A stretch of DNA of 64,000 nucleotides from Alphaproteobacteria bacterium. GTDB taxonomy: Bacteria > Pseudomonadota > Alphaproteobacteria > CAAHEQ01 > UBA3637. Location: positions 62,082-126,081 of the forward strand of contig JAZUBA010000044.1 in NCBI GenBank assembly GCA_045638265.1. The letters are read 5' to 3'. Position numbers and translations under genes: made by a program. Positions 1 to 5,176 of the stretch are shown piece after piece. The notes under the pieces were generated by a model. That model was not told the DNA's origin and searched no databases. It worked only from the letters and a program-made list of their open reading frames with translations. Each line of letters starts with the position of its first letter. Positions within the stretch are counted from its first letter, which is position 1.

Positions 1-729
1 GTTGCCAAACAATTTTTGAGTCCGAAAACACAGGCACGCAGGTTGTCGGCTATTCATGAATTTTATCGTTTTTTATATTCTGAAGATATAATTAAAAAAA
101 ATCCCGCTGATTATTTGCAATCACCGAAAGTCGGAAAGGCATTGCCGAAATATTTGTCTGAACAAGAAATTGATTTATTGATTGAAACAGCAAAACAAAA
201 GAATCAACGGATGTATGTTATGTTGGAAATTTTATACGCTTCCGGTATGCGTGTCAGTGAATTGGTCGGTTTGCCTGTACAGGCTGTTACAAGAGATAAT
301 CAAACGCTTTCCATCATCGGAAAAGGGAACAAAGAACGGATTGTACCCTTAAATGAAACGGCTAGAAAGGCTTTGGATAAATGGTTGATTCGTAGAGAAT
401 TATCATTAAAAAAAGGACGAGTATCCAAATGGCTTTTTCCTTCTACCGGTAAGGAAGGGCATTTAACAAGGGTTGGATTTTTTAAGGCATTAAAAGAAAT
501 TGCCGTTTTGTCCGGTATTGATTCGGATAAAGTTTCACCCCACGTTTTTAGGCATTCTTTTGCCAGTCATTTGATTGCACATGATGCAGATTTAAGAACT
601 GTTCAACAGATGTTAGGTCATGCTGATATCGCCACAACTGAAATTTATACGCATATTTTACAGGATAGATTAAAAAAGACAGTTGAAAAATCACATCCTT
701 TGGCGTATAGTAGCAAAAAAGGATTGTAA
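1..729 (+). CDS. xerD: Tyrosine recombinase XerD (5'-truncated by window edge)
   Basis: Motifs LYASGMRVSEL, GKGNKER, SPHVFRHSFASHL, LGHADIATTEIY. The frame is open back to base 1. Confidence 0.9.
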   Translation, partial: VAKQFLSPKTQARRLSAIHEFYRFLYSEDIIKKNPADYLQSPKVGKALPKYLSEQEIDLLIETAKQKNQRMYVMLEILYASGMRVSELVGLPVQAVTRDNQTLSIIGKGNKERIVPLNETARKALDKWLIRRELSLKKGRVSKWLFPSTGKEGHLTRVGFFKALKEIAVLSGIDSDKVSPHVFRHSFASHLIAHDADLRTVQQMLGHADIATTEIYTHILQDRLKKTVEKSHPLAYSSKKGL

Positions 730-3700
730 ATGAAAATTTTAAACAAGTACATTTTAAAACAACTGATTGTCAGTTTTTTGCTTATTTTATTAGGTTTAAC
801 CATGTTAGTTTGGTTGACTCAATCTTTGCGTATGATTGATATGATTGTTACAAAAGGAGTGTCTGTTCGTATCTTTTTACAAATGACATTGTTGGTTTTG
901 CCCAATTTCTTGCAAATATTATCACCATTGGCTTTGTTTGCGGTTGTATTATTTATTTTTTCAAGAATGCAGTCGGACAAAGAATTAATGGTTATGCAAG
1001 CTGTTGGATTGTCTAATAAGCAAATAATGATACCGGTAATGTGTTTGGCATTGGTGTTGACTGGATTTGGATATTTGATGACTTTTAATTTGATTCCGGC
1101 TTCTTATGCTAAATTAAATGAATTAAAATGGCAAGTTCGAAATGATTTATCACATTTGTTATTGCAAGAAGGACAGTTTAATTCTTTTAAAAACGGATTG
1201 ACACTCTATATCAAAGAGCGACTCGGGGATGGTTCAGTTCGAGGTGTAATGGCGTATGATGCTAAAAATCCGAATAAAACATCTGTATTGGTTGCAGAAA
1301 AAGGTGTTATTTTTCAAGAAGAAGATGGTTTTCAACTTGTTTTTCAAAAAGGAACTCGTCAAGAATATTCTCCTAAAACAAAAGATTTTTCTATTCTTAA
1401 ATTTGATAAATATACAATGTGGTTTAATGATAAAAAAAATGGAGTCGGAACACGTAATTTGAATGCAGGGGAATATTCATTAAAATATTTATTGGATGTA
1501 ACTCCGGAAGATGCGCCTTCTCCAGCATTATATAGAAAATATAAAGTTGAAATTTTTAAACGCTTTACAAAACCTCTTTATAATATTACATTCGCCTTTT
1601 TGGCTTTGTTTGGCGTGTTGGCTCCGTTTTATAATCGGCGAGGTCAAGTCGGGCGAATTAATTTTGTGATTATGTGTGCTTTGCTTATTCAATCGCTTAA
1701 TCTTGGATTTGAAAATTTAGCGACTAAAAATTTAGTTTTTATTCCATTGTTATTTGTTAATGTCTTGTTGCCGATTGTTTTAATTTATTTGAGTATGGTA
1801 AAGAAGAATGTTCGTGTGTTTAAAAGAAAAGTAAAAGCAGTTGTTGTAGCTGTTTTGTGTGGTATCGGATTGATTGCTGTGCCGTCTTATGCTCAAATTA
1901 AGATTGATCCACAAGTTAAATTTGAAGAAGATAAGCCGGTTGATTTTGAAGCTGATACGTTTTCTTACGATAAGAAAAATGATGTATTAACTGCATCCGG
2001 AGATGTCATCGTTGAGCAAAATGGAACAATCATTAGAACAGAAACATTAGTATTTAATCGGAAAACCAATTTGGTTCTTATGCCGGAAAATGTCGAAATT
2101 ACAACTCCGGATGGAACAGTAACGCATACTAAAAACGTAACGTTTACGGCTGATATGAATAACTTAATTGGTGAAGCCGTTGTTATGCGTTTATATGAAG
2201 GTTCACGCTTAAGAGCAAATCGGTTGAAACGAAAAGACAAGGGAACGTCACTTTATTTGAAAAAAGTTGATTTTACAGCTTGTTCTACATGTGGAGACGA
2301 GGCTCCTTTATGGCAATTATCCTCTCGTAATTTTAAACATGATGCACCGCAAAAGGAAATGCGATTCATTCATTCGTTTTTAGAAGTTAAAGATATACCG
2401 ATATTTTATATCCCGTATTTAAATGTTCCTGATTTTTCTGTTAAGCGTAAATCAGGATTGTTAGCTCCCAGTTTATCTCACAGTTCGGAAATGGGAGAAG
2501 GTATAACATTGCCGTTTTTTATTGATATTGCCGAGAACCAAAATTTGATTGTTCGTCCGACTATTTCAACGTCTCATGATCCGTTGGCAATTGTTGAATA
2601 TGAAGCAGTTTTTGATAAAACAGAAATGAAAGTGCATATGAGCGGTACACGAGATGAAGACGGTTCTAAACAAGGACATATTAAAGCGCATATGCGTTAT
2701 GATTTAAATGATAATTGGCGCTTGACAGGGCAATATTTCCGCTCATCATCTGATACGTATTTCAGACGTTATGATTTAGAAGGTGTTAATACGTCTCAAG
2801 CCTATTTGCGTTCTTTTTTCACGGCTGAACGTTTTGGAGAGCAAAATTATTTTAATTTCACAGGGTTGTCATTTCAAAACTTGTGGAATAATGTTCGTAC
2901 AAAATCCATTCCTGTTATCATTCCGACGGCTAATTTTGTATATCAGAGTAAACCATTGACAGATAACGGTTTGTATGCTTTTTCAAATGTAAATGCAGCA
3001 TTTTATAATAATCGGGAAAAATTAAAATCAAACAGAGCTTCTGTTACGCAAGGAGTTGCCCTGCCGTATGTGACGAATTTTGGAGCCAATGTTGATTTAA
3101 GAGCTTCTGTCAGAGCTGATGCTTATAGTATTAATACAGGTAAATATGGATTTACAGACAGACGTGCGGATGAAGCATATTCGGCAGGCCGTTTTTATCC
3201 GGTTGCATCAGCAAAAATCAGTTATCCGTTTGTGAAATATGGTAAAACAACAACTCAAGTTTTGGAACCGGTTGTCATGCTTATTACATCACCTGTGAGT
3301 GGAAATGATTCAAAAATTCCAAACATTGACAGTACAGATGTAGATTTTGATGATACGAATTTGTTTTCTGAAAACCGTTTTGTCGGATATGACAGAGTTG
3401 AAACAGGAACTCGTGCCAATTATGGGTTACAATGGTCGTTATATGATACACAAAATCGTTCTGTTTCATTTTTATTCGGGCAATCGTATCGTTTTTCAGG
3501 GGATGATGCTTTAGATAAAATTTTGGGTATGGAATCGGATTATTCTGATTATGTTGGCCGTATGAGTATTAATTATAAAAATTTAACAATGGCCTATCGG
3601 TTTCGTTTAGATGAAGATAATTTTAAAACAAAAAAGAATGAAATTAATGTTTCAGGACGTAATGGACCCTTGCAATTAGGGGTTACCTATACCCAACTAA

Positions 3701-3981
3701 AAGCTGTAAGTCTTGCGGATACGTTTTATAATGAACGGAAAGAGGTTGTTTTTCAAGGTTCAGCGGCTTTAAGTAAAAATTGGAGTTTGTCCGGATCTTA
3801 TAGATACAATTTAGCTAAAACAGACCGAGGTCCGACTGAATACGGTATGATTTTGCGTTATGACAATGATTGTACGGCTATTGAGTTTGATTTAAATAAA
3901 TCGTTTACGGAAGATAGAGACTATAAAGGTGATACGTCCTTTGTCGTAAAATTCGTTTTAAAATCGTTAGGACAAATATAA
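730..3981 (+). CDS. Fusion of LptF-type LPS export permease (aa ~1-355) and LPS assembly protein LptD (aa ~389-1083)
   Basis: N-part is a multi-TM YjgP/YjgQ permease (SDKELMVMQAVGLS). C-part has an OstA-like region, FTACSTC, RKSGLLAP and a beta-barrel ending YDNDC...FVLKSLG. Precedes surA. Confidence 0.88.
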   Translation: MKILNKYILKQLIVSFLLILLGLTMLVWLTQSLRMIDMIVTKGVSVRIFLQMTLLVLPNFLQILSPLALFAVVLFIFSRMQSDKELMVMQAVGLSNKQIMIPVMCLALVLTGFGYLMTFNLIPASYAKLNELKWQVRNDLSHLLLQEGQFNSFKNGLTLYIKERLGDGSVRGVMAYDAKNPNKTSVLVAEKGVIFQEEDGFQLVFQKGTRQEYSPKTKDFSILKFDKYTMWFNDKKNGVGTRNLNAGEYSLKYLLDVTPEDAPSPALYRKYKVEIFKRFTKPLYNITFAFLALFGVLAPFYNRRGQVGRINFVIMCALLIQSLNLGFENLATKNLVFIPLLFVNVLLPIVLIYLSMVKKNVRVFKRKVKAVVVAVLCGIGLIAVPSYAQIKIDPQVKFEEDKPVDFEADTFSYDKKNDVLTASGDVIVEQNGTIIRTETLVFNRKTNLVLMPENVEITTPDGTVTHTKNVTFTADMNNLIGEAVVMRLYEGSRLRANRLKRKDKGTSLYLKKVDFTACSTCGDEAPLWQLSSRNFKHDAPQKEMRFIHSFLEVKDIPIFYIPYLNVPDFSVKRKSGLLAPSLSHSSEMGEGITLPFFIDIAENQNLIVRPTISTSHDPLAIVEYEAVFDKTEMKVHMSGTRDEDGSKQGHIKAHMRYDLNDNWRLTGQYFRSSSDTYFRRYDLEGVNTSQAYLRSFFTAERFGEQNYFNFTGLSFQNLWNNVRTKSIPVIIPTANFVYQSKPLTDNGLYAFSNVNAAFYNNREKLKSNRASVTQGVALPYVTNFGANVDLRASVRADAYSINTGKYGFTDRRADEAYSAGRFYPVASAKISYPFVKYGKTTTQVLEPVVMLITSPVSGNDSKIPNIDSTDVDFDDTNLFSENRFVGYDRVETGTRANYGLQWSLYDTQNRSVSFLFGQSYRFSGDDALDKILGMESDYSDYVGRMSINYKNLTMAYRFRLDEDNFKTKKNEINVSGRNGPLQLGVTYTQLKAVSLADTFYNERKEVVFQGSAALSKNWSLSGSYRYNLAKTDRGPTEYGMILRYDNDCTAIEFDLNKSFTEDRDYKGDTSFVVKFVLKSLGQI

Positions 3982-3994
3982 AGGAAAAATAATA

Positions 3995-5176
3995 ATGCAA
4001 TATAAAATATTAATGTTGTTTTTGATGTTTATGTTTGGTTCATTTTCTGTTTGTGCCGGGGAAATTGTTGCAACGGTTAATGATGAACCGATTTCAAAAT
4101 ATGACGTTGAGGCACGTGCTAAATTAATAGCTATTCAAAAAGCCGAATATTTAACAAATAAACGGAAAGCACAATATGTCGGAGAAGCATTGGAAATGTT
4201 GATAGACGAAAAAGTCAAAACAAATATGGCTAAGCAACGAGGTTTTTCCGTTAGTAATGATGAAATAAACAATGCAATTTCGCATTTAGAAAAACAAAAC
4301 GGGTTGAAATCCGGTGAAATGGTTAAAATGCTAGCTAAAAACGGTGTACCTGTTGATATATTAAAAAATCAAATTCAGGCTGATTTAATGTGGATACAAG
4401 TTTTGCAAAAATATCGTTCAAGTATTGCAGATACAACACCGGTTGAAATTGAGAAAAAGAAGAATGAATTACGCCAAAAATTAAAAGAAGAAGAATTTTT
4501 TGTTTTTGAAATTTTAATTCCCAATAAAGCAGAAGCAGAAAAGTGTTATAAGGAATTGTTAAATGGTACCCCGTTTGATGTTGCTTCAAAAAAATATTCG
4601 CAATCTGGAACAAAAGAAACCGGAGGAGAAGTCGGGTGGGTTAAAACAGATTATTACGGAAAAGAAATCTCAGCGGTTTTACGTCAGATGAATATGGGTG
4701 ATTTATCTGTTCCTTTAAAAACAAAAACAGGATATTTATTGTTGTTGTTGCAAGATAAAAAAACACCAATTTATACAGATAGTATTGCGATTTGGGAATT
4801 GGCACAAATGGCAATCCCGACAAAAGAGGCAGTTCATTATGAAAAACAATTAAGCCATTTAAGTGATTGTAAATCTTTTAAAGATTTTGCAAGAAAATAT
4901 GCGATACCTGAATCGGTTAAATCCGGTATGGTCAGTCCTGATCAGTTGCCAAGTGAATTAAAAGACATTTTAGAAAAAGAAAAAATGAAAACGGTTATCG
5001 GTCCTGTACGGACACCGGAAGCAGATTTGTTTTTTATGAAATGTGCTATGACACAAAAGAAGATATTACCGGAAGATGATGATATAAAAATGCAAATTGA
5101 AACGGAAAAAATGGAAGCATTGTCTGATAAAATTCTACGCAATGCCAAACGATTTGCCGTCATTGAACGAAAATAA
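3995..5176 (+). CDS. surA: SurA-like periplasmic chaperone/PPIase
   Basis: Signal peptide, IVATVNDEPIS, parvulin motif GGEVGWV. Located after lptD. Confidence 0.8.
   Translation: MQYKILMLFLMFMFGSFSVCAGEIVATVNDEPISKYDVEARAKLIAIQKAEYLTNKRKAQYVGEALEMLIDEKVKTNMAKQRGFSVSNDEINNAISHLEKQNGLKSGEMVKMLAKNGVPVDILKNQIQADLMWIQVLQKYRSSIADTTPVEIEKKKNELRQKLKEEEFFVFEILIPNKAEAEKCYKELLNGTPFDVASKKYSQSGTKETGGEVGWVKTDYYGKEISAVLRQMNMGDLSVPLKTKTGYLLLLLQDKKTPIYTDSIAIWELAQMAIPTKEAVHYEKQLSHLSDCKSFKDFARKYAIPESVKSGMVSPDQLPSELKDILEKEKMKTVIGPVRTPEADLFFMKCAMTQKKILPEDDDIKMQIETEKMEALSDKILRNAKRFAVIERK

Follow-up and report, generated by a model that had tools for sequence, protein, structure and literature searches.

How does a cell obtain an inner-membrane permease and an outer-membrane barrel from one uninterrupted reading frame? 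The question is raised by a 64,000-nucleotide stretch of contig JAZUBA010000044.1 of an alphaproteobacterial genome (GenBank assembly GCA_045638265.1, positions 62,082–126,081 of the forward strand; hereafter the window), in which one open reading frame (ORF) joins LptF and LptD, the two ends of the lipopolysaccharide (LPS) transport bridge. We find that one real and conserved gene of gut Alphaproteobacteria encodes full-length LptF and full-length LptD, and we consider it probable that the product is a Sec-inserted precursor which would be cut by signal peptidase I at the joint. This reading is favoured because an internal restart of translation is not conserved amongst relatives and the LptF part has no stop codon of its own.

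One conserved gene encodes LptF and LptD

The first-pass annotation of the window, made from the sequence alone, had described a single uninterrupted ORF joining a complete LptF to a complete LptD, and on this Pfam, NCBIfam, AlphaFold2 and Foldseek agree. The Pfam LptF_LptG domain (PF03739) covers residues 6–355 of the fused protein (profile positions 1–351 of 353, E = 5e-69) and is followed by LptD_N (PF03968) at residues 407–485 and LptD (PF04453) at residues 649–1018 (profile positions 4–384 of 384, E = 1.7e-51). Residues 3–352 score 234.8 bits with the NCBIfam LptF equivalog TIGR04407 (cut-off 230) and only 82.9 with the LptG equivalog TIGR04408, and the score of 130.8 with the enterobacterial LptD equivalog NF002997 (cut-off 683) is as expected for a distant LptD. 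The fused gene is the only LptD and the only LptF gene of its genome (1.98 Mb in 79 contigs, 100% complete by marker genes), which has one other LptF/G-family gene, lptG.

An AlphaFold2 model of the fused protein, for which 38 fused homologues were the input, has a mean predicted local distance difference test score (pLDDT) of 79.8 and a predicted template modelling score (pTM) of 0.50. It places the LptF helices at residues 2–42, 46–82, 96–142, 265–297, 305–333 and 335–357 with jellyroll strands (150–232) between helices three and four, and builds the LptD part from strands at 405–567 (jellyroll) and 581–1077 (barrel). Hydropathy peaks at 12–30, 60–78, 99–117, 283–301 and 335–353 recover five of the six LptF helices, the fifth being weak. 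In Foldseek comparisons the LptF part matched 6mit_F from a solved LptB2FG(C) complex (TM-score 0.71, E = 4.5e-14), and the LptD part matched 8h1s, 5iv9, 9kn3 and 4q35 with E values of 1e-37 to 1e-43 and TM-scores, by target length, of 0.62–0.76 for full-length LptD chains (0.76 for 9kn3_A). Three cysteines (C518, C521 and C1048) are invariant in the 38 fused proteins and may correspond to the Escherichia coli LptD cysteines that link the N-terminal domain and the end of the barrel.

An assembly error across positions 1780–1900, to which the first-pass annotation had drawn attention, finds no support in independent data. Near-identical DNA is present in 20 runs of 12 studies, all labelled as animal gut or metagenome, and contigs from three other DNA studies span this interval with no gap and with no indel reported near the joint (X2 record 2, positions 925–1976; X3 record 12, 730–3126; X6 record 19, 1717–2463).

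The fusion is also present in relatives. The GTDB order of the window consists of a single family of 80 genomes in 16 genera, 78 of which gave a match, and stop-to-stop translation of 76 loci was used to check the frames. The whole gene lies in one frame in 69 of the 80 genomes, and in G017, G060, G065, G066, G068, G074 and G090 the joint is in frame but the gene is broken by a contig end or a later frameshift, so that the frame runs through 76 of the 77 informative joints, even in relatives of only about 40% identity; the fusion appears to be under selection. G076, a candidate split gene, was rejected as uninformative and left out of this count since both pieces stop at contig ends, the joint falling exactly on the two. 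The best 120 of 166 database matches are all 1007–1096 amino acids long and all carry PF03739 and PF04453, and a search for longer proteins that used the LptF part as query returned, among the 120 listed, the same clade only, again with both domains in every protein.

The one split member of the family is G084 (locus L038, G084:C6:600-4500; 78% complete), where lptF ends in ...FKKEQGPK-TGA and a single A in an A-run separates the split from the in-frame state; the split may reflect genuine reversion, or else a homopolymer error in an incomplete metagenome-assembled genome (MAG). No match to the fused protein (E ≤ 1e-20) or to PF04453 was obtained in G049 (98% complete) or G062 (75% complete), where LptD could have been lost or the locus left unassembled.

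The joint and the probable route to two proteins

In the window the junction reads ...LIYLS-M356-VKKNVRVFKRKVK-AVVVAVLCGIGLIAV-PSYA/QIKIDPQ (the solidus marks the predicted cut) with ATG 1795 as codon 356, exactly as in the first-pass annotation, and the n-, h- and c-regions, S-x-A site and topology of the signal peptide proposed there are present. The linker contains seven K/R and no D/E residues. AlphaFold2 models the joint with low confidence between residues 360 and 400 (pLDDT below 50 at 360–367 and 378–400) and with a short helix at 365–380. In solved LptB2FG structures LptF has an N-in, C-in topology, and because both of its ends lie in the cytoplasm the linker would be cytoplasmic too and the next segment N-in/C-out; six transmembrane helices, an even number, followed by a linker of charge +7 would orient an internal signal in this same way.

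These features recur across the 75 joints of the window's family that we surveyed (G090 was left out). The linker after the sixth helix is 4–20 residues long, its net charge is at least +2 in all 75, and the uncharged run that follows has 14–27 residues. Amongst 20 full-length genes of the genus, the mean pairwise identity is 0.74 for LptF, 0.23 for residues 354–388 and 0.68 for LptD, with a value of 0.78 for the 22 residues after the predicted cut. The conserved block restarts exactly at Q389 (+1), and in all 21 genomes of the genus examined Q occupies +1, with A (19 genomes) or S (two) at -1 and one of A, S, T and V at -3. By residue rules, the joint has the positive n-region, the h-region shorter than a transmembrane anchor and the small uncharged -1 and -3 residues of a Sec signal peptide. 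The pattern appears to be that of a signal which is cleaved, with physical character kept, sequence free to vary and a sharp mature boundary.

Two other types of signal were considered and rejected. A lipoprotein (signal peptidase II) signal at C377 is preceded by L and the Cys, inspected by eye, is not conserved, and a twin-arginine translocation (Tat) signal suggested by the RRFQFKK linker of G005 and G013 is not conserved elsewhere. We note that at two loci of family f39, which also has the fusion (L095 and L097, in G117 and G420), the linker is longer at about 40 residues and includes an extra half-hydrophobic stretch (NVFLCVFSWI / TVFERFFTFM) before the signal peptide-like segment.

Because the LptF part lacks a stop codon, all LptF is synthesised joined to LptD, and a restart of translation could only add LptD and never avoid the long chain. 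The first-pass annotation had kept a restart at ATG 1795 as an alternative only, and the comparative evidence on start codons and Shine-Dalgarno (SD) pairing argues against it as a conserved route. We searched each joint for in-frame starts from four codons before the end of helix six to three codons into the hydrophobic segment, and scored SD pairing with a generic anti-SD string, ACCUCCUUU. No ATG, GTG or TTG is found in 11 of the 75 joints (G011, G015, G016, G059, G063, G052, G022, G081, G085, G089 and G055), and 35 have no ATG. The true lptF starts have a median SD energy of -5.6 kcal/mol (54/75 at -5 or below), and the best internal candidate per joint a median of -2.5 (12/75 at -5 or below). 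Within the window, the energies are -5.6 for lptF, -5.7 for surA, -8.8 for folD and -4.2 for lptG, and -5.8 is the median over the first ATGs of 32 long ORFs. ATG 1795 scores +1.5, and only two of 27 internal in-frame ATGs are weaker.

Relatives in which the two genes are separate, or split, have clear lptD start signals. In unfused G490 the lptF TGA overlaps the lptD ATG (ATGA) with GGAG upstream, unfused G506 has an 8-nt gap between lptF and lptD together with an AAGGAAG, and in split G084 stop and start again overlap (ATGA), AAGGAG lying 12 nt upstream. In contrast, the linkers of fused G477 and G478, the sisters of G490 and G506 respectively, have no ATG, while G479 and G480 of the G477 clade still have one. 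The start signals of lptD seem to be retained where the genes are separate and to decay where they are fused, and ATG 1795 is in all likelihood a relic of the old lptD start.

In the route that we favour, the signal recognition particle (SRP) and SecYEG-YidC would insert LptF into the inner membrane with the sixth helix ending in the cytoplasm, where the strongly basic linker would remain. The former LptD signal peptide would then act as a start-transfer helix and thread the 695-residue LptD part through SecYEG, whereupon LepB (signal peptidase I) would cut after S-Y-A388 at the periplasmic face and free LptD, beginning at Q389, would pass to SurA, the β-barrel assembly machinery (BAM) and the outer membrane. 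LptF would retain the linker and signal peptide as a seventh helix and partner the separately encoded LptG; this predicted helix was absent from the first-pass annotation. We infer the Sec route, the cleavage and its precise position, as well as what becomes of the retained helix, from sequence. Of the polyprotein proposed in that annotation, the real fusion, its standing as the only LptF and LptD, the signal-like joint and the lack of a conserved restart have held up, and the cleavage itself stays a prediction.

Several observations weigh against this route, some of which speak for functional LptD being made mainly by a restart at ATG 1795 (M356), with the LptD part of the read-through chain wasted or degraded. 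M356 aligns with the LptD start of unfused G026 (the alignment of this protein begins at residue 357) and the old start Met is retained in 17 of 21 genomes of the genus, some ATG is found in 40 of the 75 joints, and the A/U-rich stretch upstream of ATG 1795 could allow SD-independent initiation. The 12 joints with a decent SD candidate also make it possible that some lineages, that of the window included, obtain extra LptD by restart. As the main source of LptD, a restart is nonetheless unlikely, given the missing SD pairing at ATG 1795 compared with about -5.6 at real starts in the window, the joints with no start codon at all, the loss of the linker ATG in G477 and G478 where the unfused sisters have both ATG and SD, and a polyprotein which LptF cannot avoid. 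It should also be noted that the predicted cleavage site is placed by the -3/-1 rule and the conservation boundary, that the AlphaFold2 model is silent on cleavage, and that among the matches listed every organism label is that of a MAG or uncultured bacterium, with no isolate-derived record. The contigs of the one RNA run are those of a relative (four of the five are 90–95% alike and one 95–99%); none spans the joint, and one that stops at 1812 is uninformative either way. Membrane-embedded N-terminal parts are, moreover, often missed by tryptic mass spectrometry, which bears on the peptide evidence from the fused Thermotoga maritima protein G4FGC1. Sexton et al. (2023, PNAS, PMC10160955) read that protein as one fused permease.

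Their 'fusion pABC permease' hypothesis is the model for an uncut chain, a covalent transporter that would span the envelope from LptF in the inner membrane to an LptD barrel in the outer one, and that conservation of the frame across the family would also suit (frame conservation across linker indels was set aside as a test because many indels would also harm the signal peptide under a two-gene reading). We regard it as very unlikely here. The first jellyroll strand begins only some 16 residues beyond the hydrophobic segment (388 to 405), a distance that, given known LptD geometry, would be too short for the N-terminal end of LptD to lie one jellyroll length away from the outer membrane unless the periplasm were very thin, and the genome retains a 467-residue anchored LptC-LptA-like bridge that would be needless with a direct tether. 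BAM substrates arrive as free periplasmic chains, and the short variable h-region with conserved small residues at -1 and -3 has the character of a cleaved signal and not of an anchor. In the Thermotoga data, moreover, the peptides cover residues 411–1020 only and come from the outer fraction only (PMC10160955). Cleavage elsewhere in the chain or by a different protease, such as a cut within the cytoplasmic linker with LptD then exported post-translationally by its own signal peptide, is highly improbable: the linker is exposed (pLDDT below 50 at 360–367), which lends no direct support, but has no conserved motif, an identity of 0.19–0.23 and a variable length of 4–20 residues, and conservation is confined to the -3/-1 pattern where the hydrophobic segment ends. 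As far as sequence data can tell, the chance that the fusion is an assembly or sequencing error or a pseudogene is virtually nil, for although G084 is a single base in an A-run away from the in-frame state and single-base errors are conceivable here, gap-free contigs from three independent studies bridge the joint, 76 of 77 informative genomes are in frame, and both modules are full length and conserved.

Origins and genomic setting of the fusion

The distribution of the fusion was determined in a class sample of 401 genomes from about 208 families, with genes counted as fused when full length at E ≤ 1e-125. Full-length fused genes were restricted to the window's family and f39 (3/3 genomes), and in family f3 lptF lies directly beside lptD but unfused. 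An exhaustive profile-free search of 1.84 billion representatives added fused forms sharing 30% identity, two of them complete (P0126 and P0140) and one a fragment (P0162), each made up of LptF and LptD with the same kind of joint. P0126 is from a 1.2-Mb MAG labelled 'uncultured Azospirillaceae bacterium' and P0140 from a 0.9-Mb MAG labelled 'uncultured Alphaproteobacteria bacterium', and in both genomes a second LptF/G gene stands apart. Fusion is also seen in the nearest relatives (G479 and G480 for P0126, G504 for P0140), while the next relatives, at 47–56% identity, have adjacent but separate genes.

We undertook a phylogenetic analysis of the LptD part using IQ-TREE (36 rows, LG+G4, with Shimodaira-Hasegawa-like approximate likelihood ratio test (SH-aLRT) support), and a FastTree analysis of 78 rows agrees with the result. 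The tree contains three fused clades, f1 with f39, G477 with G479 (sister to unfused G490) and G478 with G504 (sister to unfused G506); every branch that matters here is supported at 100%, and the starred branches force at least three changes. This implies three or more origins of the fusion amongst Alphaproteobacteria with small genomes. The simplest history is that lptG moved away and left lptF beside lptD, that the pair became packed or overlapped, and that the stop was lost at least three times. The fusions look like the loss of stop codons between tight or overlapping lptF-lptD pairs in small genomes, which could have been near-neutral, and selection may favour the fused state through coupled amounts, as in the fixed 1:1 synthesis suggested by the first-pass annotation, and a coupled place, or may merely tolerate it.

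It is a rather unlikely proposition, though one with consequences, that the fusion is a recurrent device which couples the LPS bridge's two ends both spatially and in amount, with a role of its own for the retained helix. If true, LptD would be released into the periplasm at the translocon where its LptF had just been inserted, and the seventh helix might occupy the binding place of the LptC anchor helix and tune the ATPase. It would also explain why LptD has repeatedly been fused behind inner-membrane proteins (three times in the Alphaproteobacteria, and in Thermotoga in print).

Only fusions that we had translated ourselves were counted, because a frame length estimated by search can run across a single stop. 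Two candidates were rejected on translation, the LptG-LptD fusion of G030 (1194 = 479 + 1 + 714) and the LptF fusion of G528 (1085 = 392 + 1 + 692), as each has one stop between two in-frame genes. Six LptD proteins with long N-termini (P0143, P0174, P0196, P0217, P0232 and P0267) were also set aside as they have no LptF/G domain.

Table 1. Coordinates of the fused gene, its parts and two further genes in the window.
Feature	Position in window	Strand	Remarks
Fused lptF-lptD ORF	730..3981	+	1083 codons plus stop; ATG start; no internal stop
SD-like AAGGA before lptF start	719..723	+	Duplex energy with ACCUCCUUU -5.6 kcal/mol
LptF permease module, aa 1–353	730..1788	+	Transmembrane helices 1–3, periplasmic jellyroll, transmembrane helices 4–6
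Basic cytoplasmic linker (predicted), aa 354–369 (LSMVKKNVRVFKRKVK)	1789..1836	+	Includes ATG 1795
Signal peptide h-/c-region (predicted), aa 370–388 (AVVVAVLCGIGLIAVPSYA)	1837..1893	+	Hydropathy peak 370–388
Predicted signal peptidase I site S-Y-A/Q	1885..1896	+	Codons 388/389 (nt 1893/1894)
Mature LptD (predicted), aa 389–1083	1894..3978	+	N-terminal jellyroll, then beta-barrel
surA-like periplasmic chaperone gene	3995..5176	+	SurA_N and Rotamase domains; directly downstream
lptG, 366 aa	58989..60089	+	TIGR04408 217.7 bits (cut-off 240), best family; LptF 82.3

The locus is tightly packed in the order xerD-like, lptF-lptD, surA and folD-like. Upstream, the TAA of an integrase/XerD-like ORF (positions 1..729, Phage_integrase) abuts the ATG of lptF at 730 (window positions 727–732). 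The other components that the proposed route would use are encoded in the same genome. The lptG gene lies 55 kb from the fused gene, LepB (162 bits) and BamA (757 bits) are present along with a weak match to LptE, and lptB, named by position and sequence, encodes a 244-residue ABC ATPase at L017:1902-2636 beside the LptC/A-like gene.

This last gene is a second Lpt fusion in the same genome, encoding a protein of 467 residues (G000:C17:34472-35872; L017:502-1905), outside the window and flanked by a kdsD-like gene and lptB. An N-terminal anchor helix comes first, then an LptC-like region at residues 35–201 that scores 28 bits, under the cut-off of 38, and an LptA-like region at residues 332–456 that scores 31.8 bits with PF03968, over the cut-off. 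Of the 20 other genomes of the genus, 13 have a single frame of 457–482 residues covering both ends, and in G018, G011, G015, G016, G005 and G013 the LptC- and LptA-like parts lie in frames of 541–714 residues with extra repeats (these lengths are search estimates, and two carry a stop in the second match). The genus search gave no LptC-LptA-like match in G010, and in the outgroups LptC and LptA are separate.

Significance and comparison with known systems

Processing of polyproteins by signal peptidase is textbook knowledge for viruses and eukaryotes but is rare in bacteria, and the fusion offers a natural test of whether Sec and LepB can handle a single chain that carries both a polytopic inner-membrane protein and an outer-membrane barrel. 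The alphaproteobacterial fusions are also young, and their evolutionary path can be followed through unfused sisters whose genes overlap at ATGA, one split member that may be a revertant, and the three fusions of independent origin. There is a practical consequence, as public records name the fused proteins of about 1080 residues either 'LPS export ABC transporter permease LptF' or 'LPS assembly protein LptD' but never both (P0001–P0120, the best 120 of 166), and Lpt gene-content surveys can miss LptF or LptD as a result.

The literature that was accessible to our search contained no description of a natural LptF-LptD fusion in the Proteobacteria. One candidate paper deals with tagged constructs, and amongst the papers found on these proteins in Thermotoga only Sexton et al. 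was relevant. A review of signal peptides (PMC9360617) has no passage on internal signals or polyproteins. The T. maritima protein G4FGC1, a 'putative ABC (pABC) permease', is an LptF/G-LptA-LptD fusion that is hypothesised to deliver lipid from the inner membrane to the toga, where it is itself enriched, and that is found throughout the phylum as a conserved protein; the accessible text does not discuss cleavage at the joint (PMC10160955). Dataset S2 of the same paper lists no spectra for it in either inner-membrane replicate and 38 and 77 in the toga replicates, and in Dataset S4 all 41 peptide rows (16 + 25) fall at residues 411–1020 and none at 1–410, on which the accessible text makes no comment (PMC10160955). 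These positions match what a processed precursor might be expected to yield, as far as the deposited tables suggest. If the Thermotoga fusion is processed as well, the modelling of G4FGC1 changes.

The likeness to G4FGC1 lies in a single gene that encodes LptF/G-like, LptA-like and LptD-like parts, arranged in matching order. Thermotoga has no LPS genes according to the same source, whereas the window encodes a canonical LptF equivalog and a canonical LptD within an Lpt system for which LptB, LptG, the LptC-LptA-like protein and a weak LptE match are also encoded. The alphaproteobacterial origin is, moreover, separate and recent, with unfused sisters still visible.

A parallel in terms of processing may be FbcH of Bradyrhizobium japonicum, a cytochrome b-c1 polyprotein reported in 1991 by Thony-Meyer, James and Hennecke (PNAS 88:5001), which is reported to be split at an internal signal. 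Its first part, too, is an alphaproteobacterial inner-membrane protein that is polytopic and ends in the cytoplasm; the signal peptide of a periplasm-facing partner comes next in the chain, and the split is reported to fall there. The second product of FbcH stays at the inner membrane as part of one complex with the first, in contrast to LptD which must leave via SurA and BAM, and the two polyproteins have no sequence relationship. Compared with the E. coli LptB2FGC-LptA-LptDE system (6mit, 5x5y, 4q35, 5iv9 and 9kn3), both modules match in sequence and fold, but E. coli carries lptF and lptD as two genes at different loci, and its LptD is exported by its own N-terminal signal peptide. The architecture is already known from another phylum and the novelty of the fusion is limited to that extent; what appears to be new is its independent and recent origin in Alphaproteobacteria with LPS-type systems, the visible intermediates, and the comparative evidence against an internal restart.

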